Of a DNA stretch of 64,000 bases, positions 2,842-42,061 are shown in pieces. The DNA is taken from NCBI GenBank assembly GCA_947169235.1, contig CAMVOY010000001.1, forward strand, positions 6,743 to 70,742, in the 5' to 3' direction. This stretch comes from an uncultured Lachnospiraceae bacterium (GTDB lineage Bacteria > Bacillota > Clostridia > Lachnospirales > Lachnospiraceae). Numbering within the stretch: position 1 is the stretch's first letter; each line of letters starts with the position of its first letter. Made by a program: the position numbers and the translations under genes. The notes under the pieces are model-generated. The model worked only from the letters and a program-made list of their open reading frames with translations. It ran no database searches and had not been told where the DNA came from.

Positions 2842-3390
2842 ATGGCAACAGTATATGATTTCAAGGTGAAGGACAGATCAGGAAATGAAGTTAGTATCGG
2901 TGATTACAACGGAAAAGTGCTTCTTGTTGTAAACACAGCTACAGGATGTGGATTCACTCCGCACTACGAACCTCTCGAGTCAATGTATGACGAGCTTAAG
3001 GACAAGGGATTTGAGATTCTCGATTTCCCGTGCAACCAGTTTGCCGGACAGGCTCCGGGATCGGATGAGGAGATCCATGAGTTTTGTACATTAAAGTACG
3101 GAACGGAGTTTCCGCAGTTTTCAAAGATTGACGTAAATGGTGATGATGCCGATCCGCTCTTTGTTTATCTGGCCGGCGAGAAGCCCTTTGAGGGATTTGG
3201 AAAGGGCATGAAGGCAAAAGCGATGAACAAGTTCACCAAGATGAACAACAAAAAATACGGAGACAAGGCATATATCATGTGGAACTTCACGAAGTTTCTG
3301 GTAGACAGAAACGGAAATGTGGTTGCAAGATTTGAGCCTACCGTGGATATGGAAGATGTAAGAAAAGCAGTTGAAGAATTAGTGGGGTAG
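2842..3390 (+). CDS. glutathione peroxidase-family thiol peroxidase
   Basis: NTATGCGFT...FPCNQF...WNFTKFLVDRNG motifs. The track start 2836 abuts the RBS GGGGGA, so ATG 2842 has better spacing. Confidence 0.9.
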   Translation: MATVYDFKVKDRSGNEVSIGDYNGKVLLVVNTATGCGFTPHYEPLESMYDELKDKGFEILDFPCNQFAGQAPGSDEEIHEFCTLKYGTEFPQFSKIDVNGDDADPLFVYLAGEKPFEGFGKGMKAKAMNKFTKMNNKKYGDKAYIMWNFTKFLVDRNGNVVARFEPTVDMEDVRKAVEELVG

Positions 3391-3394
3391 AAGT

Positions 3395-4258
3395 ATGAAT
3401 AATAACCGCTTTGATATCGCGATCATAGGATGCGGACCTGCCGGAGTATCGGCAGCGATCACGGCTAAGATCAGGAATAAATCAGTTCTTTTGATAGGTG
3501 ATGAGATCAGCACTAAGGTGGGAAAAGCACATGAGATCAAGAATTATCCGGGACTTCCGGATATCACCGGAGAGGACCTGGCTGGAGCATTTTTATCACA
3601 TCTGAAAAAGATGGAGATCGACATCACAAAGAAACGTGTAAGCACTGTGTATGCGATGGGTGAATATTTCGCGATACAGGCGGATGAGGAAATGCTCGAG
3701 GCAGACAGCCTCATACTTGCTACCGGCATCGTGACCGGGAAATCACTTCCGGGTGAGGACGAGCTACTGGGTCGGGGTGTGAGCTACTGTGCCACATGCG
3801 ATGCATCACTGTATCGCGGAAAGTCGGCGATCGTCATCGGTTACAGTAAAAAGGAAGAGAGAGAGGCTGCTTTTCTCTCAGAGGTCTGCAGTGAGGTCAG
3901 GTATATCCCTGTTTATAAGGACGAAACCGAGCTGCCGGATAAAGTCAGTGTGGTGAAAGAGCAGGTAAAGGAAATCCGTTCCGACGGAGACAAACGCATC
4001 GTAGTCACATCAGAGAGAGAGTACGAAGCAGATGGAGTCTTCGTACTGAGAGACGCGATCGCGCCTGACAGGCTGGTTCCGGGACTTGAGACGGACGGAG
4101 GACATGTGGTAGTCGACCGTCATATGAAGACAAATCTTGACGGAGTATTTGCCTGTGGAGATATCACCGGAACACCGTATCAATATATAAAGGCTGCCGG
4201 TGAAGGTAATGTAGCAGCGCTTGAAGCAGTAAAGTATCTGGATAAAAAAAGAAAGTGA
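3395..4258 (+). CDS. thioredoxin-reductase-like flavoprotein lacking the NADPH-binding signature
   Basis: FAD motif GCGPAG and redox-active CATC are present. The second dinucleotide motif reads VIGYSKKEEREA where GGGxSAxEEA is expected, and no HRR motif is seen. Confidence 0.8.
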   Translation: MNNNRFDIAIIGCGPAGVSAAITAKIRNKSVLLIGDEISTKVGKAHEIKNYPGLPDITGEDLAGAFLSHLKKMEIDITKKRVSTVYAMGEYFAIQADEEMLEADSLILATGIVTGKSLPGEDELLGRGVSYCATCDASLYRGKSAIVIGYSKKEEREAAFLSEVCSEVRYIPVYKDETELPDKVSVVKEQVKEIRSDGDKRIVVTSEREYEADGVFVLRDAIAPDRLVPGLETDGGHVVVDRHMKTNLDGVFACGDITGTPYQYIKAAGEGNVAALEAVKYLDKKRK

Positions 4259-4268
4259 GGATGAGGCT

Positions 4269-4583
4269 ATGGTAAAGAAGGTAAATGCAGAGCAGTTTGA
4301 AAACGAAGCAAAAAAAAGTGAAGTAGCGGTTGTGGATTTCTCAGCAACATGGTGCGGACCGTGCCAGATGCTGGCGCCGGTACTCGAGCAGGTCAGCTCA
4401 TCATTGGGTGACCGGGTTGACTTTTACAACGTTGATGTAGATGACGCACCGGAGTTGGCGGGAGAGTATAAGGTACAGTCGGTTCCGTGTCTGATACTCA
4501 TGAAAAACGGAGAGTTGGTTGATCAATCCGTCGGTTTCAAACCGGAACCTGCGATCACAGGATGGATCGAGAGCCATCTTTAA
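4269..4583 (+). CDS. trxA: thioredoxin
   Basis: 104 aa with the WCGPC active site. Confidence 0.95.
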   Translation: MVKKVNAEQFENEAKKSEVAVVDFSATWCGPCQMLAPVLEQVSSSLGDRVDFYNVDVDDAPELAGEYKVQSVPCLILMKNGELVDQSVGFKPEPAITGWIESHL

Positions 4584-4605
4584 GATCAGATTTTATGACC
4601 ATGAT

Positions 4606-4634
4606 AAAAGCCTTGCAAAAGCAGGGCTTTTTTC
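4606..4634 (+). terminator. rho-independent terminator after trxA
   Basis: Stem AGCCTTGC / GCAGGGCT with loop AAAA, followed by a T-run. Confidence 0.7.
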
Positions 4635-4641
4635 GTATAAT
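4613..4641 (+). promoter_or_regulatory. candidate promoter for the GGDEF gene
   Basis: TTGCAA (4613-4618), 17 nt, TATAAT (4636-4641). It overlaps the trxA terminator. Confidence 0.45.
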
Positions 4642-4714
4642 GAATAATAGGTTTTACTCTTGACAGATGGTTCAAACGGGACGATCTCAAAGGATGACAG
4701 TATCGGAGGTGCCT

Positions 4715-6118
4715 ATGGATTTTCAAAAAGTCGTTGACAGTATGGGAGCTATGACGTGTATCGTTTCCGTAGAAAAACTCGAGGGTGACAGATACGGAAA
4801 GATCAGGATAGTTGCGGGCAACAAGGCATATGTGGAATCCATCGAGACCCCTGCACCCGGTACCGAGATGCTCACCGACAAGTTTGTTCCCAACATGGAA
4901 TACACTACCTATCTTACCAGAGACCTGAACTTCGAAGATTATTGTTACCGCGCTGCGGTTCAGAAAAAATGTCTGCATTCCTATGTTCATCCCGACAGGA
5001 TGAACGTATGGTTTAACATGAGTTTTTTGCCCCTTCTTCCAGATGATGGAAACATCTGCTATTGTCTGTACATGATGGAGATCAATTTCGAGCCGAACTC
5101 GGAGCACATGTCAAATATCTCCGGAGAGATGGCTTCCGCGGTTCTCGAGACCACCATAAAGCTTCGTGGAACTGATGATTTCAGGTCGACTATAAAGGAT
5201 GTTGTTGCCGATATCAGAGATATGTGTGATGCGGAGCATTGTTGTATACTTGCGATGAATGAGTATGACAGATCATGTGAGGTGCTCGGAGAGGCGTTTT
5301 CTGATGGAACGAATTTGAAATCCATGGATGAATACCTGGAAGGATTTTATGACATAGCGGAGTCATGGGAGGATACCATAGCAGGCAGCAACTGTCTTAT
5401 AGTGAAAAATGAACAGGACATGGAGGTTGTTAAGGAGCGAAATCCGGTTTGGCATAAGTCGCTCACCGATGCGGGAGGAAAGTCGATCGTTTTGTTCCCT
5501 CTCAAATCCAGAAACCAGCTTCTCGGATATATGTGGGCTATCAACTTTGATGCGGACAATGCGGTAACAATAAAAGAAACGCTTGAGCTGACCACGTTCA
5601 TCTTGGGATCTGAGCTCGGAAACTATCTCCTTCTTGACCGATTAAAAATACTCAGTTCGAGAGATCTGTTGACCGGTGTACTTAATCGTAATGAGATGAA
5701 CAACTATGTTGACAGCATGAGTGAGGGCGAGGAGTATTCCGGCTCTGTAGGGGTATGCTTTGCCGACTTAAACGGACTTAAAAAGGTCAATGACGAAGAG
5801 GGCCATCCTGCAGGTGATGCGCTGCTAAAAGATGCTGCAAAGGCTCTGTGTGAAGTGTTTGATGAGTCGGAGATATTCCGTGCCGGAGGAGATGAGTTCT
5901 CTATCATCGTAAGGGGAATAACATCAGAAGAGCTGGACAAAAAGATAGAGCGTGTACGTCAGGTTTCTATCCATTATGATAAGGTATCATTTGCACTGGG
6001 CGGCAGTGTTGAGCAGGACTGCAGGAATGTACGTCAGGCACTTCGAAACGCGGATGTAAACATGTATGAGGATAAGAAACGATACTATAATGAGTTTCCT
6101 GATCGTAAGCACAGATAA
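4715..6118 (+). CDS. diguanylate cyclase (GGDEF) with N-terminal sensory domains
   Basis: C-terminal LLTGVLNRNE...GDALLK...FRAGGDEFSII. Start at ATG 4715 behind GGAGGTG, in frame with track ORF 4667. Confidence 0.85.
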   Translation: MDFQKVVDSMGAMTCIVSVEKLEGDRYGKIRIVAGNKAYVESIETPAPGTEMLTDKFVPNMEYTTYLTRDLNFEDYCYRAAVQKKCLHSYVHPDRMNVWFNMSFLPLLPDDGNICYCLYMMEINFEPNSEHMSNISGEMASAVLETTIKLRGTDDFRSTIKDVVADIRDMCDAEHCCILAMNEYDRSCEVLGEAFSDGTNLKSMDEYLEGFYDIAESWEDTIAGSNCLIVKNEQDMEVVKERNPVWHKSLTDAGGKSIVLFPLKSRNQLLGYMWAINFDADNAVTIKETLELTTFILGSELGNYLLLDRLKILSSRDLLTGVLNRNEMNNYVDSMSEGEEYSGSVGVCFADLNGLKKVNDEEGHPAGDALLKDAAKALCEVFDESEIFRAGGDEFSIIVRGITSEELDKKIERVRQVSIHYDKVSFALGGSVEQDCRNVRQALRNADVNMYEDKKRYYNEFPDRKHR

Positions 6119-6129
6119 TCATATTCTTC

Positions 6130-6160
6130 AAAAAGCCCCGTATGTACAGGGCTTTTTGTT
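6130..6160 (+). terminator. rho-independent terminator
   Basis: AAAAGCCC ... GGGCTTTTT hairpin with a T-run. Confidence 0.7.
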
Positions 6161-6166
6161 TGTTTC

Positions 6167-6195
6167 TTGACAGGCTAATACTCGTTTGCTATAAT
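6167..6195 (+). promoter_or_regulatory. consensus sigma-A promoter
   Basis: TTGACA (6167-6172), 17 nt, TATAAT (6190-6195). Confidence 0.65.
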
Positions 6196-6266
6196 ATGGC
6201 TGATTGATGATAACCCGATAGGAATGATCGGAAGGAAGGATAAAACCTGACTTTGGAGGAATAAAC

Positions 6267-6857
6267 ATGTCAACAAAAGAAAAAATACTTGACTCGGCAT
6301 TGACTCTTTTTTCGAGAAACGGATACAGCGGGACGAGCGTGGAACAGATAGCAGAGAGAGTCGGCATCAAAGCGCCGTCTCTGTACAAGCATTTCAAAGG
6401 AAAGGCTGATATCCTGAACACTCTCATAGATGTTGTGAATGAACGTTATGATGAGCTCTTCGGATCTGAGGATCATACCGGTGAAATCCCGGACAGTATC
6501 GAATCATTTATTACAGATACCATGGGCAGAATAGACTTTACGATGCATGATCCTATGGTGGTCAGAACGCGCAAGATGGTTGTTCAGGAGCAGTTCAGAA
6601 ATGAGCATCTCGCTGAGACCGCAAGCAAGCATCAGCTGCACGGTATCCAGAGAATGTACACCAGAATATTGAAAGAAATGATGGACAAGGGTATATTTAA
6701 AAAAGATGATCCGGAGCTTATGGCGATGGAGATCACCGCACCGGTCGTTCTGTATCTGGCGCAGGTTGACAGACAGCCTAAAACAGAAAAAACGGCAGTT
6801 AAAAATATAGAGAGACATTTAAGACATTTTTGTGAAACTTATAAAGGGGAAAAATGA
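6267..6857 (+). CDS. TetR/AcrR family transcriptional regulator
   Basis: N-terminal HTH ILDSALTLFSRNGYSGTSVEQIAERVGIKAPSLYKHF. RBS GGAGGA. Confidence 0.9.
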   Translation: MSTKEKILDSALTLFSRNGYSGTSVEQIAERVGIKAPSLYKHFKGKADILNTLIDVVNERYDELFGSEDHTGEIPDSIESFITDTMGRIDFTMHDPMVVRTRKMVVQEQFRNEHLAETASKHQLHGIQRMYTRILKEMMDKGIFKKDDPELMAMEITAPVVLYLAQVDRQPKTEKTAVKNIERHLRHFCETYKGEK

Positions 6858-32379: not shown

Positions 32380-33153
32380 TTATTTCTGTTTTGACTTTAA
32401 GCCGTACACCTCACGCATTGAGATATCTTTTGTAGGGTCGATACTCTCGATGTTTATCTCGTATCCATCATGGATTATGCGATCCAGGATCGCATCTGCA
32501 AGTGGAGATGCACTGCCACCAAGTTGATCATACCATCCTTCCTTGCGGTACTGTGAGCAAAAGATGGTTGATGATTTTTTGCGTCGTCTGTGCAACAGTT
32601 CAAAGATACACTGTTGTTCATACTCATCAGGAGTAAGAAGTAACCACTCATCTAGAATGAGTAGTGTGGGGTTGGCGTATTTACCAAGAGTCTTTTTAAA
32701 ATGATTCTCTTCTCGGGCCATCTTCAGGTCGAGAAGGAGATCCGGCATGCGGACATACTTGGTATTGTAAAAGTGTTTACAAGCTTCCATCCCCAGAGCA
32801 CAGGCAAGGTAGCTCTTACCACTGCCTGTGGCGCCGGTTATGAATACGTTAAGGTATTCCGTGATATAATCACATGTGGCGAGTCTAAGTATAAGATCCT
32901 TGTTAAGCTTTCGTCCGGAAGTATAGTCTATATCAACTACACTTGCTTCCGGTTGATCGAAACTGGCGTTTTTGATCAATCGCTTAAGACGGTTGCTCTT
33001 GCGACTTGAATACTCGATGTCAACCAGCATTGCCAATCGATCTTCGAAGGAAACCTCCTTCAGTTTTGGATCTTCCGATTGGATTATGAGAGCGTTTGCC
33101 ATTGATGTAAGACGCATCTCGATAAGCTTATTTATAGTACTTTGTTCAAACAT
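32380..33153 (-). CDS. istB: IS21-family helper ATPase IstB
   Basis: Walker A GATGSGKS, Walker B LLILDEW, and the typical IstB N-terminus. Confidence 0.95.
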   Translation of the reverse strand: MFEQSTINKLIEMRLTSMANALIIQSEDPKLKEVSFEDRLAMLVDIEYSSRKSNRLKRLIKNASFDQPEASVVDIDYTSGRKLNKDLILRLATCDYITEYLNVFITGATGSGKSYLACALGMEACKHFYNTKYVRMPDLLLDLKMAREENHFKKTLGKYANPTLLILDEWLLLTPDEYEQQCIFELLHRRRKKSSTIFCSQYRKEGWYDQLGGSASPLADAILDRIIHDGYEINIESIDPTKDISMREVYGLKSKQK

Positions 33154-33159
33154 TGACGA

Positions 33160-34698
33160 TTACCTCCTGTTATAGTAGTCGGCACCTCTCGTGATGCCGT
33201 AGGGATTGACGGTGGGTTCGGAAGACTGTTCTTCCGGTTTAGCTAGATCAGGCTTGGCTTTCAAGATGTTCAATACACTCTTGTAGCTCGGCGATGATGT
33301 TAAACTCAACGCTTTTGCACAGGCAGCTTCTAGTTGATTTGGAGAGTACCTCTCCGAAAGCTTTAGAAGCCCCATACAGCCCTTATAGGTCTGTTGCTCC
33401 ACTCGTCTGGAGGTAAGTATAGCGTCCACAACCTTGTAGGTATTTATCCCTATATGCTCCGCCCATTTGCGGAATCGATCACCGTTCCATTCCAAGAACT
33501 TTTGGTGATCCGGTGGCATATGTTCCGTTACCGTAGAATACTGTCCTTTGCGACCATACAGGCGCACATGGGTTGCGATACGGTTTTGGTTGTAGAATAC
33601 TTCAATAGTTTTGTCCGTTACCCGTACGTCGACACGTTTTTTTATGTACTCATATGGAACTGAGTATAGACAACCGTCGACAGATATGTGATAATTGAAC
33701 TGAACGGTGGCTTGTTTCCATTCCGCCAGTTCGTATGGGGTAGCGGGTAATGACGCCAGAAATGGTAATTCTTCGGTTCGGAATAGTTCATATCGGCTAC
33801 CCTCTTTTTTCTGAAAGGGTTTCCGATTGTAGGCATCGAGCTTTGCCCGTATCGCCTGATTCATCTCTCTGAACGAGAAAAACTGTTCATTTCTGAGAGC
33901 GGCTATGATCCACGTAGACACATGTCCTACGGATCCTTCCGCATTTGGTTTATCCTTTGGTTTTCGTACCCGTGCTGGGATGATGGCTGTCCCATAGTGT
34001 TCCGCCATCTCATGGTAGACTGCGTTTATCCGCGGATCTTCATATCTCTTGTTTTGATTGACCGCAGTTTTACAGTTATCCGGTATGAGGATTCGTGCTA
34101 CGCCACCAAAGAAGTCGTACATGTGGATATGGGCACTGATCCATGCTGCCTGCTTTTCGTCGGGGAATGCCTCAACGTAAGCGTACTGGCTGTAAGACAG
34201 GACTCCCACAAAGATGTGGGCATCGATGATCTCACCGGTATTCCGGTCGATGATCTGTGCCTTATCACCTGCCCAGTCCACTTCCACCTGCTCTGCAGGC
34301 TTGCGGTCGATATGCATGGTGGCACGTCGTTTCTGCTCATCCTGTTGGATGTAGTAGCAGAACTGAGAATACATGAGAGGATCATCCCCGTTTAATCGGC
34401 ACTCCTCCAAGTATTCGACCCATAGTAGTTTCTTGGAGACTCCGTTACGGAGAAGCTCCTTGCGGATGTAGTCGTAATCCGGCATCCGCTTGTCGCTTGA
34501 AGATTTGGGTTTCGGAAAAAGCTTTTCCTCAAGTGCCACATCCGTTAGTTCTTTCGGAAGCGGCCAGGACAATCCGAGCTCTTCGGCGCGTTTAAGCGCC
34601 TTAGCGACAGTGTTTCGCGAGCACGGGACACTTAATGCGATGTTCCGCGCGCTGAATCCAAGGCTGTTTAGCCTTAGGATTTCTCGGTACTTGTTCAT
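33160..34698 (-). CDS. istA: IS21-family transposase IstA
   Basis: 512 aa with N-terminal HTH (NIALSVPCSRNTVAKALKRA) and a DDE core. RBS AAGGAGGG. Confidence 0.95.
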   Translation of the reverse strand: MNKYREILRLNSLGFSARNIALSVPCSRNTVAKALKRAEELGLSWPLPKELTDVALEEKLFPKPKSSSDKRMPDYDYIRKELLRNGVSKKLLWVEYLEECRLNGDDPLMYSQFCYYIQQDEQKRRATMHIDRKPAEQVEVDWAGDKAQIIDRNTGEIIDAHIFVGVLSYSQYAYVEAFPDEKQAAWISAHIHMYDFFGGVARILIPDNCKTAVNQNKRYEDPRINAVYHEMAEHYGTAIIPARVRKPKDKPNAEGSVGHVSTWIIAALRNEQFFSFREMNQAIRAKLDAYNRKPFQKKEGSRYELFRTEELPFLASLPATPYELAEWKQATVQFNYHISVDGCLYSVPYEYIKKRVDVRVTDKTIEVFYNQNRIATHVRLYGRKGQYSTVTEHMPPDHQKFLEWNGDRFRKWAEHIGINTYKVVDAILTSRRVEQQTYKGCMGLLKLSERYSPNQLEAACAKALSLTSSPSYKSVLNILKAKPDLAKPEEQSSEPTVNPYGITRGADYYNRR

Positions 34699-35114: not shown

Positions 35115-35438
35115 TCAATCAATAAACAATTCCTTCTTGGAAGCATTAATGACCGCAGCAATAATATCCTTTGGCTTATTCTTGGATGACTCACAACTTT
35201 TTTGGCTGACACTTGGACCATCACTTCGTGATGCATCATAGGTTATAGAGACTTTGTTAAATTCTGGACTTGTTGTAATTACAAGAGAATATGTATGCTT
35301 ATAATCTCGGGAAGTATAATCAATATCTAAGGGTTTTCCATCTAACACAATATCCAATTTATAGTTTTCAGTCAAACCGCTATAATTATTAATATAATTG
35401 TTAACTATCTCTATTTCCTGATCGTTTACTTTCATCAT
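35115..35438 (-). CDS. hypothetical protein (107 aa), last gene of an AT-rich 3-gene operon
   Basis: RBS AAAGGAG. It overlaps the upstream gene by 38 nt in another frame. No family recognised. Confidence 0.6.
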   Translation of the reverse strand: MMKVNDQEIEIVNNYINNYSGLTENYKLDIVLDGKPLDIDYTSRDYKHTYSLVITTSPEFNKVSITYDASRSDGPSVSQKSCESSKNKPKDIIAAVINASKKELFID

Positions 35439-37173
35439 ATGACTCCTTTTTTATTTCATTTCGATCCAACTTATAGGGTTTAATCTCATCGGTTTCCCTA
35501 TAAAACAAATGCTCACCTATCAAAATATAATTCTCTGTTTCCTTTTCTATTCTTGTAAGCGCTTGTCCAATTAAACCATGTGAGAACGCATAGGCTCTCT
35601 CTCCTATCGTTAAACCTGCACCATCAACATAATTACGTTTAAAAACCCGTTTAGTACACTCCGTTTCCTGATCATATACATAGAGTGCTCCTTTCTTTGA
35701 ATATGCGATATATGGATAGTATGCTGAAAGTGATTCGTAATCGTCCGGAATATCTATCTCTTTTGATTCGTTATTAAAGTTTTCGCCGGAGTCCAAATCA
35801 AAATAGGAAAGAACATGTTTAGGTTTATTTAATCTATCATCATTTTTAATTCTATCAAATAAGATCCAAAGATGGTTTCTATGATTAATCGCCCCAACCA
35901 AATTAACAATCCATCTATTTTTCTTAAACTTACTTTTCAAAAACTCAGTGCTATACTCACTTGTATCAAGCGAATCCAACGAAAATCTAAACACCTTTTG
36001 ATGAAATGTTACCAAATCGTTTTTTACCGTCTCATGTCCGAAATATAAGTACCCCTCATAACAGCCAAGAAGTTGAGAATCTTTTTTGATTTCCTCAACA
36101 ACAAAACTTTTCATTTCAAGACCCTTTAGATTTAAAATATGACAAGTGCTTTTCATAGCTTCTCTGAAAAATAATTTTTTGCCCCTATACACACACATAT
36201 AGTTTATATTATGAAACTCATCACGCGAACATACCATCATTGACTCTTCATCGTTAAACTTATAACAATACAACACATTCTTACTTATATAATAAACTGT
36301 TCTACCCCATATACAAAAACATTTTATAGGAAATCTCAATTCATAAGGTATCAAATGCAACTCACCTGTTTCTTTGTCTACACAACAAAAATCATCTCCA
36401 TTAATATATGCCAAGCACTCATTGCTTTCAATATAGTCAGATGTAAGGCTATGAGGATCTAAGATTTTTTTTGCATATCCTTGTGCACACTCGTAACTAA
36501 TAGCCTTATACTCATCCTCCTCTTCACACGAAAAGTCCACATCAAACTTTTCATAATCATCAGATATTCCATAGTATCGTACAAGTCCCTCTTCACAAAA
36601 AACAAATTCGATAAGCCTAATTTCTGCATCAATCGTGTCCTTAATACTGTCATTTAGATTAAAGCGCGAGAATAACACTTTATCATAGTTATCCAGTTTG
36701 TCATCAACATCCTCATATAAAAAGAAGAATATCCGAAGCGCCTTATACAATACCTTTGAGTTCTCAACTAATTCAATTCTTTCAAAACTGGAAAAATCAT
36801 ACTCGGCATCTGGTTGCCATGAAAGCAACCCAAGTGCAGACTTTATATTAGTGCAATACTCAGTCTGATTTGCATTTTTTCCATCCAAAGAGAGCCTTGT
36901 CAATGCATTTAAAAGCATTCTCTTTTCATGATCTTCTAAATGTTCCAATCCATACGGATGTGTAATCCCAAAAAGCCTTTCAACAGCTTCATCATTAAAA
37001 TTATCTATTAAACTATCGATCGCATCAGACATTCCATCAACGTCATGACCAACATCAGTTATCAATTTTTTTAGATAATTAAGTGCGGACAGCTCCTTTT
37101 GAACTAATTCTTTATTGAGTTTAAGACCATATTTAACTCCCTCACCGAATTCATTTACATCTTTTTTGCTCAT
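35401..37173 (-). CDS. hypothetical protein: TerB-like helical N-domain plus C-terminal beta-propeller-like repeats
   Basis: LEDHEKRMLLNALTRLSLDGKNANQTEYCTNIKSALGL resembles the TerB/DjlA-N pattern. The C-terminal half has recurring (V/L)YY / LY(F/V) blades (TVYYISKNVLYCYKF, GYLYFGHE, ALYVYDQE, HLFYRE). ATGA overlap with the upstream gene. Confidence 0.7.
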   Translation of the reverse strand: MSKKDVNEFGEGVKYGLKLNKELVQKELSALNYLKKLITDVGHDVDGMSDAIDSLIDNFNDEAVERLFGITHPYGLEHLEDHEKRMLLNALTRLSLDGKNANQTEYCTNIKSALGLLSWQPDAEYDFSSFERIELVENSKVLYKALRIFFFLYEDVDDKLDNYDKVLFSRFNLNDSIKDTIDAEIRLIEFVFCEEGLVRYYGISDDYEKFDVDFSCEEEDEYKAISYECAQGYAKKILDPHSLTSDYIESNECLAYINGDDFCCVDKETGELHLIPYELRFPIKCFCIWGRTVYYISKNVLYCYKFNDEESMMVCSRDEFHNINYMCVYRGKKLFFREAMKSTCHILNLKGLEMKSFVVEEIKKDSQLLGCYEGYLYFGHETVKNDLVTFHQKVFRFSLDSLDTSEYSTEFLKSKFKKNRWIVNLVGAINHRNHLWILFDRIKNDDRLNKPKHVLSYFDLDSGENFNNESKEIDIPDDYESLSAYYPYIAYSKKGALYVYDQETECTKRVFKRNYVDGAGLTIGERAYAFSHGLIGQALTRIEKETENYILIGEHLFYRETDEIKPYKLDRNEIKKESYDESKRSGNRDS

Positions 37174-38495
37174 GTCCCACCTCCCTCGTATAGAAACGAA
37201 TAATTATCTCCAACAATTCTCTCATACAGTTTTTCTTCCAAGAACTCTTTTCTAATATTCCCTTGCAATTCACTATTAATTGCAATCTGATGTATTGCGT
37301 GAATATATCCACCAATGTCGATGTGCGATACTGCTTTTTTAGTCAACGGCTGAACTCCTGATAAAACTCCTACTAAAACACCTGCAGCCACCGCTACGAT
37401 ATTCAAACTTTCCGCAATAATTGATGATATTGCAAGAATCCTTTTTGTTCTCACCAAATAAATGTTATAATCACCATCTTTTTCCGGATTATACATAAAA
37501 GAATGTATTATTTCAATACATGTGCTGATGAACTCAGCCCAAAAATAATTCACTTTAATACCATTCATAGCCCCCTTTGCTATTTTTTCGAGTTCCTTGC
37601 TATTCCAATTCTTGTTAAGCATTTTTTGTTTTTTCTCAGGATTTATAAACGGAATAGGAAGCCCCTTTTTTGTATTCTTATCTGAAAGCATATGAGCTCT
37701 ATGCTTTTCCAATGCATTTTTCAATCGATCTGGATCCTCCGATACTGATCGAATAACATCTGCCACCATCATCGAAAACGAATATGGAGGAAATTCAGTG
37801 ATCCATTGCGTTCCACCTTCACGAGCAACTTTCATCGTCAAACAAAATGCCCCCTTTTCAATATCAAAAGAATCTTCTTCGGGATTAATCAATCTAGCAT
37901 TTTGAAAAGTAATTGAACGTGTCATTATGTTCATCGGGCCAAATACAAATCCTATAATCGGGTCATGACCAAGTGTCGCCGAATGATGATTCACGCCATT
38001 TAACTGTGCATACTCACCTTTCTTAAGACCAGGTATCCATATAAACTCTGTGCCTTCCGTTGCATCATAGGGAACAGGGAAATCTAATATCTCTTGTGCA
38101 GTAGGTAATTCATACAAATTGTCAGGTATCTCCTTCAACCTTCTCGAATCAAGCTTCGGATCTTTTTTTCCTTCTTCACCACTATCTTTTCTGTCCGAAA
38201 CATCAGGCGCAAGTGTTTTTTCATCTAATGTAGGTATCATAATCCACCTCAAACACTGTAACGCAACTGCAGTCCATAAAAATATAAGATCCTTTTTATT
38301 GAGAATCCCTGTCTTTTCCGAAAACTCCACATAGATATCATCAAAAACCTCATCTATCGTATTTATTTCACCTAACACACGATTTGCATTATCCTGCATT
38401 TCTGTTATCGCAGAATCCAGCTTTGAGATATTCTTGTGAAAGCTGTTACACGATTTATTGTAATTGTTTTTTATCCCTTTATATTTTTCAAGCAT
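37170..38495 (-). CDS. hypothetical protein (441 aa): coiled-coil N-terminus and two hydrophobic helices
   Basis: ATG 38495 lies 8 nt behind GGGAG; the track start 38501 is a GTG. Hydrophobic segments are LIFLWTAVALQCLRWIMIP and ILAISSIIAESLNIVAVAAGVLVGVLSGV. No family recognised. Confidence 0.7.
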   Translation of the reverse strand: MLEKYKGIKNNYNKSCNSFHKNISKLDSAITEMQDNANRVLGEINTIDEVFDDIYVEFSEKTGILNKKDLIFLWTAVALQCLRWIMIPTLDEKTLAPDVSDRKDSGEEGKKDPKLDSRRLKEIPDNLYELPTAQEILDFPVPYDATEGTEFIWIPGLKKGEYAQLNGVNHHSATLGHDPIIGFVFGPMNIMTRSITFQNARLINPEEDSFDIEKGAFCLTMKVAREGGTQWITEFPPYSFSMMVADVIRSVSEDPDRLKNALEKHRAHMLSDKNTKKGLPIPFINPEKKQKMLNKNWNSKELEKIAKGAMNGIKVNYFWAEFISTCIEIIHSFMYNPEKDGDYNIYLVRTKRILAISSIIAESLNIVAVAAGVLVGVLSGVQPLTKKAVSHIDIGGYIHAIHQIAINSELQGNIRKEFLEEKLYERIVGDNYSFLYEGGGT

Positions 38496-38534
38496 TCCCA
38501 CATCTCCCGTTTACAAAAAGGCCAATTCTATGCA

Positions 38535-39586: not shown

Positions 39587-40678
39587 TCAAACACCTCCAT
39601 TTTCATAATAATAAGCTAATCTCCAATACAACAACGCCATCGCTACATCGTCCGCTCTGGGATGATACAGCATCATTCCAAGATCAGACAGACACTCCAT
39701 CAGGTTTTCCGGAAGATAATAGTCCCGGAATTGCTTGTCAACAGGATACCTATACCAACCATTTTTCAGAATCTCCCGACACATATGGTCAATTTCTACC
39801 GCTGCTTGTTTGTCGCTAAAACACTTTGAGAGGAAGATTTTATAGACATCATCTCGTGATGACGGGATTCTTTTTTCTGAAACATCTCCATATCGGAGCC
39901 ACCAAAGCAACTTTTCCTGATTCTGTACGGTACCATGCAAAAAACCGATCACTCGTACAAGATCATAAAAGCTCTCAATAGGATATTCATCAAGTAGTTC
40001 CTCCAGATATTCTGCGTTTTCACCTCTAGCAAAGATACCTTTCTGTATCAACTCTTTGACGTTCGGGATTATGAATGCGACCGGAACTTCTCTGTCATCA
40101 AACGACGGTGTACTCATCGGAGCATTTGATTCATCCACGATTGCAGACAGCCTATCCACTGAGCAATCAGATATTATGGTACTCAGCTCATCCTTGTAGA
40201 TATAGGAATCTCCCTTTGATTCCATGTTTGTTTCTGCTAATTCACGATCAGATGCACATAGATCCCTTAAGTACTCTCGCCCCTTTGAGGATTGGACCAT
40301 CATCACATGCCTCATTCCGTTCTTTGGCAAGTTCTCAAGATAGATTTCTGCCGGAAGATTGTATGTGATAGGGTTTACATCGCCAGATAATCCCATGAGA
40401 TAGCTGACCAGAAGATTCGACATGGGTCCTCTTGGCATGTACTCCCAGGAATGAACTTGCATATCTCGGATTCTCATGGCGTTCTTTAGGATCCTTACAT
40501 CATTGCCTGTTTCTCGAGCTATCTTGAGTTCATATTCAAGACGATCTGATATGTTAACAGGAAGCGGATCACCGTATACCTTCTTTGCCCGCGACATGCA
40601 GGTGTTATGAAGGATCTCTCCTGGGTTGCTCTTTCCTGATCCTTTATGAAATGTGCCGTTTTTCAGAATCCCCCACAT
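39587..40678 (-). CDS. PolC-derived protein lacking the polymerase palm (about 363 aa)
   Basis: ATG 40678 lies 5 nt behind GGGGGTG; the track start 40732 lies in the promoter region. Blocks resembling Firmicute PolC are listed in the findings. No counterpart of the PDIDLNF catalytic segment was found. Confidence 0.7.
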   Translation of the reverse strand: MWGILKNGTFHKGSGKSNPGEILHNTCMSRAKKVYGDPLPVNISDRLEYELKIARETGNDVRILKNAMRIRDMQVHSWEYMPRGPMSNLLVSYLMGLSGDVNPITYNLPAEIYLENLPKNGMRHVMMVQSSKGREYLRDLCASDRELAETNMESKGDSYIYKDELSTIISDCSVDRLSAIVDESNAPMSTPSFDDREVPVAFIIPNVKELIQKGIFARGENAEYLEELLDEYPIESFYDLVRVIGFLHGTVQNQEKLLWWLRYGDVSEKRIPSSRDDVYKIFLSKCFSDKQAAVEIDHMCREILKNGWYRYPVDKQFRDYYLPENLMECLSDLGMMLYHPRADDVAMALLYWRLAYYYENGGV

Positions 40679-40727
40679 AAAAACACCCCCTATTGATGAT
40701 CTTAAGACCATTATAGAGGGTGGGGTA

Positions 40728-40742
40728 GACATATTCTGTCAC
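40728..40742 (-). promoter_or_regulatory. candidate operator, copy 1 (GTGACAGAATATGTC on the minus strand)
   Basis: 16/20 identical to the copy at 42046-42061. TGACAG lies exactly 20 nt upstream of TATAAT (40715-40710). Confidence 0.5.
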
Positions 40743-40844
40743 TTGTTCATTTTTTCACCAATTTTTTTTAACTCTTTCTTCATCTCTAACTTAGACATCG
40801 TCATTAAACTCACTCAAAAAGAAACTCATATCATATAGTTTCTC

Positions 40845-41980: not shown

Positions 41981-42045
41981 GTGTATATACCCCCTCGTTC
42001 TTATGCAAGTTTCATGTTTCTGTCTATAAGTATAATTATCCGGAT

Positions 42046-42061
42046 GGACAGATTCTGTCAT
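42046..42061 (-). promoter_or_regulatory. candidate operator, copy 2 (ATGACAGAATCTGTCC on the minus strand)
   Basis: Contains the perfect inverted repeat GACAG-AAT-CTGTC. TGACAG lies exactly 20 nt upstream of TATACT (42034-42029). Confidence 0.5.

Follow-up and report, generated by a model that had tools for sequence, protein, structure and literature searches.

The window analysed here is a 64,000-nucleotide (nt) stretch of DNA from an uncultured Lachnospiraceae bacterium (GenBank assembly GCA_947169235.1, contig CAMVOY010000001.1, positions 6,743 to 70,742), and our subject is a gene within it that encodes a 363-amino-acid (aa) protein resembling part of the DNA polymerase PolC. By its proteins the genome is that of a rumen-type, Lachnospiraceae-like member of the Clostridia: one housekeeping protein shares 69% identity with its counterpart in a rumen Clostridiales MAG, and Lachnospiraceae account for most of the remaining best hits. 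The PolC-like gene lies in a defence island that covers ~29.9 to 42.1 kb of the window and is flanked by an ECF-transporter operon and an ABC-transporter operon. It is followed by a gene for an exported protein, with which it forms a two-gene cassette; a helix-turn-helix (HTH)-WYL regulator gene lies upstream, and beyond the partner gene is a low-GC module that includes a membrane protein resembling BnzB of the Bunzi defence system (Table 1). The open reading frame (ORF) of the PolC-like gene is intact, and its ATG is preceded at a distance of 6 nt by a good ribosome-binding site (RBS), AGGGGGTG, as had been noticed in an earlier reading of this DNA made without database searches (the sequence-only reading). 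A longer version of 381 aa could be read from 40732; the start at 40678 is preferred because the RBS lies there and the stretch further upstream is promoter-like.

Profile, sequence and structure comparisons all identified the 363-aa protein as a relative of PolC, and in every one of them, models and structures alike, PolC scored ahead of DnaE. The protein matched the Pfam family for the Pol III alpha palm (PF07733; E = 6e-7, with 29.8 bits where the cutoff is 23.9) and the NCBIfam PolC models (E = 1e-10 for TIGR01405, and 1.5e-8), compared to 2e-3 for a DnaE model. Its TIGR01405 score of 40 bits is far under the equivalog cutoff of 1043, which shows homology to PolC but not equivalence. A phmmer search of PDB sequences returned PolC matches only (9qpc and 3f2b), with two colinear stretches that correspond to residues 857-935 and 1136-1316 of 9qpc (E = 3e-6). 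Among viral models, the sole matches were full-length phage DnaE-type polymerases. The AlphaFold2 model was confident, with a predicted local distance difference test (pLDDT) score of 79.8 and a predicted TM-score (pTM) of 0.85, and its top 17 Foldseek matches in the PDB were all C-family polymerases (best match PolC 3f2b, E = 8e-8, TMq 0.68), a fold match to be read with the caveat that the model was built from an alignment of members of the family of short C-family polymerases described below (the minis). The profile of that family likewise matched PolC (3f2b) at E = 4e-115, compared to 1e-37 for DnaE.

Taken together, these alignments and the model show that the protein is a genuine but diverged PolC homologue, with ~16-25% identity to real PolC. 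Its palm and fingers are homologous to those of Geobacillus kaustophilus PolC (PDB 3F2B), the best match in both sequence and fold, and a series of motifs is colinear between the two (YGDPLP..RLE.EL, RG..S..V.YL.G...NP, GL.HGT, RDD and P[KR]A...WR.AYY). The sequence-only reading had reported just such colinear blocks against strings of PolC, and both the blocks and the strings agree with the real PolC sequences in our alignments.

On one central point that reading has to be revised. It had described the protein as PolC with its catalytic palm excised, and the segment between the matching blocks as having no counterpart. When we combined a MAFFT alignment with real PolCs, the alignment of the family profile to 3f2b and the strands of the model, the palm beta-sheet was found to be retained (strands 80-83, 124-128, 148-151, 158-162 and 166-170), and the supposedly missing segment contained two short strands, MRHVMMV and STIIS, that match the PolC strands PDIDLNF and LKLDILG. 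What these strands lack is the catalytic residues: D973, D975 and D1098 of G. kaustophilus PolC are replaced by H124, M126 and T167, so that all three catalytic aspartates are gone (D1098 was mapped onto 3f2b chain position 684 through the alignment of the family profile to 3f2b). In the fingers, GFLHGT corresponds to PolC GLSHGT and SSRDD to CRDD, and what remains of the steric-gate motif KYMFPKAH is a degraded LYHPRAD. Alignment and model therefore support a palm that is present yet catalytically dead, and the earlier description of the protein as non-catalytic holds for this reason rather than through loss of the palm.

The segments that have been deleted relative to 3f2b are the Zn-finger insert (~41 aa), whose absence had been recognised from the sequence, and the thumb together with the HPGGIIVVP...TTHFD hairpin (~89 aa in all). 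Also in line with the earlier description, both ends of PolC are missing. The first palm helix comes ~20 residues into the protein, and everything N-terminal to the palm is gone (N-domain, OB, PHP and exonuclease); a Pfam scan found no match to the PHP domain (PF02811) in it. At the other end it stops in the fingers, at approximately PolC residue 1316, and the clamp motif, helix-hairpin-helix (HhH), OB and C-terminal regions are absent. No canonical clamp motif (QL[SD]LF) was found in the 363-aa protein, in which a loose QKGIF (212-216) lies inside a predicted helix. The protein thus differs from PolC in having about one quarter of its length, three substituted catalytic residues (H, M, T for D, D, D) and no steric gate, and in being encoded in an accessory island rather than at the replication locus.

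Despite these losses, the gene is maintained. Among 5.8 billion proteins, a single cluster of close homologues was found (P0001, 91% identity), encoded on two contigs (L001 and L002). A third copy is truncated at the edge of contig L100, where it starts ...AYYYENGGV*, and a fourth, P0002, is a fragment. The frame is intact in all of the contigs that cover it (the window, L001 and L002), and the C-terminal fragments in L100 and P0002 match to their extent. Over 363 codons, the window and L001 copies are separated by 39 synonymous changes and 36 non-synonymous ones, without any stop or frameshift, and the ratio of non-synonymous to synonymous rates (dN/dS) against the 91%-identical homologue is 0.23. 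The gene is under purifying selection and encodes a folded protein. This bears out the suggestion, made from the sequence alone, that it is a maintained derivative and not a fresh fragment, a suggestion that the confident model further supports. No close relatives were found among 185,579 species-representative genomes, in IMG/VR or in GenBank phages, and a search of plasmids returned only a remote 914-aa protein from a Cetobacterium replication module; the lineage is therefore rare, and nothing in these searches pointed to carriage by phages or plasmids. The 914-aa protein is itself worth recording. Annotated as a 'hypothetical protein', it is encoded at positions 3768-6512 of the L102 locus among helicase genes on the 189-kb Cetobacterium somerae plasmid p3 (NZ_CP143322.1) and contains a palm block like that of PolC. 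It is probably a replicative polymerase that has diverged and gone unannotated.

The PolC-like gene does not travel alone. The start codon of its exported partner lies 2 nt past its stop codon, with the partner's RBS (GGAGGTG) within its final codons. Distant homologues of the partner carry PF02368 (Big_2), and its own structure model is of low confidence (pLDDT 57) with weak matches to Ig-like folds. The partner gene is conserved alongside the PolC-like gene in L001 and L100, and the DNA conserved between loci runs from 40786 to 38728, that is, a ~110-nt leader, the PolC-like gene and the partner gene, with unrelated flanks on either side. The RBS, the leader and the stop-start arrangement are conserved in independent contigs. 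We concluded that the genes for the PolC-like protein and its exported Ig-like partner together make up a two-gene cassette, one that is mobile between defence islands. In L001, the cassette has a DUF2201 metallopeptidase/VWA gene on one side and PDC-M09B, PDC-M09A and a BnzB-like gene on the other, and the genes downstream of it in L100 differ from those in both the window and L001. Synteny of the window and L001 beyond the cassette was considered and rejected, as their BnzB-like proteins are 24% identical over 143 residues. The two cassette genes also differ from each other in their history. The partner gene has a dN/dS of 0.16, and its dS is 1.03, compared to 0.19 for the PolC-like gene (window versus L001 2333-4305). 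This approximately five-fold gap suggests either recombination inside the cassette or diversifying replacement of the partner. We also considered, and dropped, a toxin-immunity arrangement in which an exported toxin is paired with an immunity protein that mimics its target, on the grounds that no toxin domain could be recognised in the partner and that the genes are in an atypical order.

Table 1. Features of the cassette, of its island and of related loci. Positions refer to the window unless another locus is named.
Feature	Position	Strand	Description and basis
PolC-derived pseudo-polymerase gene	39587..40678	(-)	363 aa; dead palm and partial fingers; ORF, RBS, profile, PDB and model
MRHVMMV, residues 122-128	40295..40315	(-)	Aligned with PolC strand PDIDLNF; predicted beta-strand 124-128
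STIIS, residues 166-170	40169..40183	(-)	Aligned with PolC strand LKLDILG; predicted strand
RGPMS	40418..40432	(-)	Degenerate remnant of the RGS(V)GSS 'GS motif' (nucleotide-binding, Pol-beta-like palm); alignments
Fingers part, residues 175-359	39602..40156	(-)	Alignment with PDB PolC 1136-1316; model helices
Cassette gene 2, exported protein, 292 aa	38706..39584	(-)	Signal peptide, Lys-rich helix, conserved beta domain, helix, Big_2/Ig-like domain, acidic tail
Cassette leader/promoter	40679..40786	(-)	Palindrome TGACAGAATATGTC at 40728-40741; TATAAT at 40710-40715; RBS GGGGGTG at ~40684-40690
HTH-WYL regulator, 320 aa	40845..41807	(-)	Directly upstream, same strand; PF13280 E 8e-8; PADLOC WYL models E 3e-18 and 1e-14
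Second palindrome copy	42029..42060	(-)	TGACAGAATCTGTC at 42047-42060; followed after 12 nt, as at the cassette, by TATACT; precedes the 85-aa ORF/WYL unit
Low-GC module	35115..38501	(-)	BnzB-like membrane protein 37170-38501; 590 aa 35401-37173; 107 aa 35115-35438
IS21-family element, intact	32380-34698	(-)	IstA 512 aa (rve/Mu-transposase C-terminal domain) and IstB 257 aa; adjoins the BnzB-like module
ToxN type III toxin fragment, 78 aa	30890-31126	(+)	PF13958 (E 4e-16) over profile positions 42-102 of 159; apparently a truncated remnant
Metallophos/PDC-S10 genes	L003 9290-11125; L008 2661-4487; L011 75-1907		Each followed by a dead mini of 371-374 aa

The DNA upstream of the cassette gives an indication of how it may be regulated. 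The sequence TGACAGAATNTGTC, a palindrome of the form GACAG-N3-CTGTC, occurs exactly twice in the window, once before the cassette and once before the unit composed of a small ORF and the WYL gene. The cassette copy lies 51 nt 5' of the PolC-like ATG, and a -10-like hexamer follows each copy after 12 nt, giving an element with the layout TGACAG-N4-TGTC, 12 nt, TATAAT. We put the probability that the window would contain a second exact copy by chance at ~0.002, and no copy was present in 180 unrelated loci (~1.9 Mb). The palindrome recurs at the related loci, twice in L001 (at the cassette and at another small gene) and once in L002. In L001, the cassette's operator/promoter element is duplicated before an unrelated 120-aa gene (1557-1611 and 2270-2330), implying a small regulon of genes that share the element.

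A comparable pattern was seen at a more distant mini locus, L017, whose WYL protein is 64.7% identical to that of the window even though identity between the two loci is only 28.6% for the minis and 27% for the BnzB-like proteins. L017 contains three TGACA(G/T)-N4-TGTCA sites, each followed after 11-12 nt by TATAAT and one of them directly upstream of the mini's unit; the locus has 7 matches where 1.2 are expected, a number that none of 200 shuffles reached. A 48-nt repeat (GGGAGTGACAGATGATGTCATTCCC.TTTTTTATAAT...) at 873-920 and 3009-3056 of this locus precedes a transcription unit at each occurrence. Two of the palindrome sites lie within the repeat, and the third, a related palindrome, is at 266-281. 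We regard the repeat and the palindromes as candidate operators for this WYL subfamily. At a further locus, L263, the operator search was uninformative.

Control of the cassette by the WYL protein through a shared operator-like palindrome is thus supported by the sequence pattern. The sequence-only reading had placed the gene in a WYL-regulated island operon. The regulatory half of this claim gains from the shared palindrome and the likeness to L017; the operon half does not stand as worded, because the cassette has its own promoter-like leader and different neighbours in L001 and L100, and the genes are therefore not one obligatory operon. The arrangement resembles that of BrxR in BREX and CapW in CBASS, where a co-oriented HTH-WYL gene also lies directly upstream and an inverted repeat is common to the promoters of regulator and targets. 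It differs from those loci in that the regulated genes belong to neither BREX, CBASS nor any other listed system, and in that the operator is a candidate here, a specific sequence pattern that returns at a locus with an orthologous WYL.

Whether the BnzB-like module belongs to the same system as the cassette is uncertain. The PADLOC BnzB model matches the gene at 37170-38501 with E = 2e-26 over profile positions 231-464 of 504, and no match to TerB/BnzA was found in Pfam or PADLOC for the 590-aa, the 107-aa or any other island protein. The genes of the module have a GC content of 33-37%, compared to 42-45% for the PolC-like and WYL genes, and the module has a promoter-like site of its own (38563-38535). 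Bunzi consists of a TerB protein, BnzA, together with BnzB (Millman et al. 2022, bioRxiv 10.1101/2022.05.11.491447), and its presumed site of action is the membrane. Like Bunzi, the locus has a BnzB-type membrane protein, here adjoining the cassette, and the exported partner would also act at the membrane; unlike Bunzi, it has no detectable TerB/BnzA, and neither the PolC-like protein nor its partner matches a Bunzi model. Conceivably, the module is a variant of Bunzi in which some protein not recognised as such takes the place of BnzA. None of the PADLOC-DB v2 hidden Markov models (HMMs) matched the PolC-like protein or the exported partner. No Rfam RNA family was found in the 64-kb window, and no tRNA genes were found flanking the island.

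The 363-aa protein has relatives that are similarly trimmed. We searched 1.84 billion representatives exhaustively with an HMM and obtained 149 representative clusters, many of them complete proteins of 300-560 aa that start just before the first palm helix, as our query does. The core of these minis spans 292-420 residues, compared to 450-490 in real PolCs. We determined the state of the catalytic DxD motif with an anchored motif count, which is approximate and covers only anchorable proteins: DxD was lacking in 49 of 65 proteins of at most 560 aa and kept in 136 of 150 proteins of 561-1000 aa. Counting the triad with hmmalign on the PolC HMM was rejected as a method, because DnaE-type proteins were misaligned and the clear PDIDIDF of one of them, P0252, was scored as gaps. 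Within the family, the query is an orphan lineage with 22-29% identity to any other member, and residues of the nucleotide pocket that are retained in most of the other minis are lost in it. The Firmicute minis are PolC-type, and some still have the Zn finger. The Bacteroidota minis (P0154 and its relatives) instead descend, by their sequences, from phage-type DnaE (phrog_405, E = 5e-100), with PDIDIDF changed to PYIALDF and 50% identity to a polymerase on a viral contig. The minis come from different parents, PolC-type and phage-type DnaE. No minis of the tested lineages were found on viral contigs, and P0154 and P0003 had no match in PADLOC-DB v2. These alignments and motif counts indicate that dead mini C-family polymerases are a broad family in which the query is one lineage, not a one-off.

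We sampled the genomic contexts of minis in nine lineages, using raw neighbour counts. What a profile scan of metagenomes brought up was nearly all genuine PolC genes of 1400 aa, and it was of no use for statistics on context. In six of the nine lineages, the mini has a WYL gene no more than about six genes away, and BnzB-like genes are near minis in three loci, namely the window and L001, which belong to the same cassette lineage, and L017. This proximity of WYL and BnzB-like genes to minis is suggestive. At L017, the mini (P0004) is part of a tight array that runs NERD, mini, ADP-ribosylglycohydrolase (ARH), transmembrane protein, BnzB-like, WYL and dynamin-like. The order at L014 is WYL, then the mini and an AAA gene, and P0012 has a WYL gene upstream and an AAA protein downstream. 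At L263, a WYL/WCX gene is followed by a gene for an exported cell-wall-binding protein and then by the mini (P0005), with ARH and GIY-YIG genes downstream. The gene between WYL and the mini (4650-5483) encodes an exported protein with choline/cell-wall-binding repeats, and this is a second, independent tight link of a dead mini polymerase to a surface protein.

Elsewhere the neighbours are of a nuclease type. The Bacteroidota minis of L003, L008 and L011 always come directly after a Metallophos gene that matches PADLOC PDC-S10 (E = 1e-70), in a hotspot downstream of mnmE where PDDEXK_4, WYL/WCX and GmrSD genes are close by. PDC-S10 may really be a two-gene unit in which the Metallophos protein stands in for the lost PHP domain. 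A PDDEXK_4 gene matching PDC-S26 lies directly 3' of the mini in L016, and P0013 is found in a phage-tail-like region with a serine recombinase alongside and then a PDDEXK_4 gene (PDC-S26). The flanks of P0003 (L019) were uninformative. In none of the nine contexts was an imuA, dnaE2, Y-family or recA gene nearby. PDC-S10 and PDC-S26 are thus immediate neighbours of dead minis in sister lineages, not of the gene studied here, and PADLOC lists both without a polymerase-like partner.

Dead relatives of polymerases are known from other families. ImuB and iPolY (Y family) and PolX proteins with an inactive polymerase site are dead polymerase homologues that serve as scaffolds (PMC12926913). The gene studied here resembles them in that selection has preserved a polymerase fold whose active site is gone. 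It differs from all three in being C-family, in having no ImuA, DnaE2 or RecA partners and no canonical clamp motif, and in its defence-island setting. Two large surveys of this family (PMC3919608 and PMC12926913) leave truncated sequences out, and the passages that term searches brought up from them report neither dead minis nor other inactive derivatives. A full-text literature search found no description of a truncated or inactive C-family polymerase in defence. The remark in the sequence-only reading that no described system has such a component is therefore in keeping with both this search and PADLOC-DB v2.

Given these observations, we propose that the dead mini-PolC is a recognition or adaptor module of an inducible defence locus and acts by binding, a reading to which we assign a probability of roughly 0.45. 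The 363-aa pseudo-polymerase, a PolC palm-fingers core that has lost its catalytic carboxylates, its sugar-gate residues and its clamp- and duplex-binding parts, would act through binding rather than synthesis. Because the same palindrome is present at the cassette and WYL promoters, repression by the WYL protein is the most likely form of regulation, and the cassette would be released upon DNA damage or infection, as at BrxR/CapW-type loci. A remnant of the polymerase's DNA/nucleotide cleft, or a surface exposed by loss of the PHP domain, could then recognise a ligand associated with the invader, for example entering or replicating DNA. Recognition would be coupled to membrane-associated partners, here the exported Ig-like protein and the BnzB-like protein, and in sister lineages the same role might be coupled to the nuclease-type neighbours (Metallophos/PDC-S10, PDDEXK_4/PDC-S26 and NERD). 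More tentatively, minis of PolC and DnaE origin could constitute an unrecognised class of immune component, in which dead cores, trimmed time and again from host-type or phage-type polymerases and placed under WYL repression, work with membrane or nuclease effectors as sensors of invading or replicating DNA or as mimics that jam the replisome of an invader.

Several points count against the proposal of a binding module in defence. The evidence for a defence role is neighbourhood, in nine contexts, and there is no homologue of tested function. Since the nucleotide-pocket residues, the thumb and the HhH are lost, binding of DNA or deoxynucleoside triphosphates may be weak or absent. It is not obvious how an exported partner would be linked to a cytoplasmic DNA-binding module, and the dS values of the two cassette genes (0.19 versus 1.03) point to recombination within the cassette. 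No WYL gene lies within the 8.9-kb L001 contig, which is short. Finally, with its own promoter, its different GC content and no copy of the palindrome, the BnzB-like module may be an independent system.

An induced dead core might alternatively poison replication by competing with a PolC-type replicase of the host or a phage, at the primer-template or through a replisome contact, and stalling synthesis, with abortive infection or a damage checkpoint as the outcome and no need for a separate effector. The polymerase core shape has been kept, the WYL-type promoter probably responds to damage or infection, and the Bacteroidota minis clearly come from phage-type DnaE polymerases, all of which would suit a poison. 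We nonetheless consider this unlikely, given that the known docking elements are all gone (clamp motif, C-terminal tau-binding region, thumb, HhH and OB), that the pocket residues are degraded in the query lineage, and that the recurrence of minis beside separate effector-like genes better fits a sensor. The loss of docking parts also weighs on the possibility raised in the sequence-only reading, namely a decoy or guard that mimics a surface of essential PolC attacked by phage or plasmid proteins and either soaks up the inhibitor or triggers defence. A mimic of this kind would explain homology to PolC rather than DnaE, purifying selection without catalysis and a defence-island setting, but the parts of PolC that dock with partners (the clamp motif and C-terminal region) are exactly those missing. 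At ~16-25% identity and with strongly diverged surface motifs, the protein would moreover be a poor mimic, the presence of DnaE-type and phage-derived minis in the family implies that mimicry of host PolC is not the general rule, and we know of no phage inhibitor that targets PolC. A decoy or guard is accordingly improbable in our judgement.

Damage responses are under the control of WYL regulators in cases such as PafBC and DriD, and a WYL-controlled protein could, in the manner of ImuB, organise repair or translesion factors as a scaffold for damage tolerance. Dead polymerase scaffolds are established in ImuB and iPolY (PMC12926913). Yet the nine contexts are devoid of imuA, dnaE2, Y-family and recA genes and have defence-type genes, insertion sequences and integrases as neighbours; the loose QKGIF is the nearest thing to a clamp motif; and the gene is very rare and strain-specific, being absent from the 185,579 species representatives, so that a scaffold of this kind seems to us a poor prospect. 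The rarity of the lineage would fit a functionless remnant of a mobile-element polymerase that is decaying and is carried along with its neighbour gene, as do its extreme divergence from PolC and its location among an insertion sequence and gene fragments. This reading is, however, already disfavoured, and we hold it to be very unlikely, in view of the dN/dS of 0.23 in an uninterrupted frame, the conservation in independent contigs of the RBS, leader and stop-start overlap, the compact and confident model, and the dozens of mini clusters with the same domain boundaries.

C-family polymerases are usually regarded as strictly essential replicases or translesion enzymes, and here there is a sizeable family of short, catalytically dead but selected derivatives in accessory and defence islands, often near WYL regulators. 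If the immune role is correct, it would represent a new route from the replication machinery to a sensor or inhibitor and a new type of component for defence catalogues. PDC-S10 and PDC-S26 might then turn from single-gene candidates into two-gene systems, and the operator sites of a WYL regulator subfamily would become testable. If the role is not immune, the protein would still be a rare pseudoenzyme derived from the main bacterial replicase.

The profile search was dominated by longer proteins of ~810 aa, with PHP, palm and fingers, which we considered as members of the same kind as the minis and rejected because they keep the DID motif. By sequence, they are probably active phage- or integrative and conjugative element (ICE)-type polymerases. 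They make up a family of more than 100 clusters, ~755-818 aa in length, with a PHP domain, a palm with intact DID and fingers, and without the clamp-binding, HhH and OB parts; the closest relative on a viral contig is an 821-aa polymerase. The 811-aa P0252 gave a single weak match to PglX (E = 0.0017), with no separate stretch over threshold. Its gene lies at 8001-10436 of L006/L007, in a Bacteroidota-type island, after AbiEii, WYL/WCX, RNase T, two GmrSD genes and a PLD-like gene. Proteins of this longer family may serve mobile elements or defence loci as minimal polymerases that are still active.

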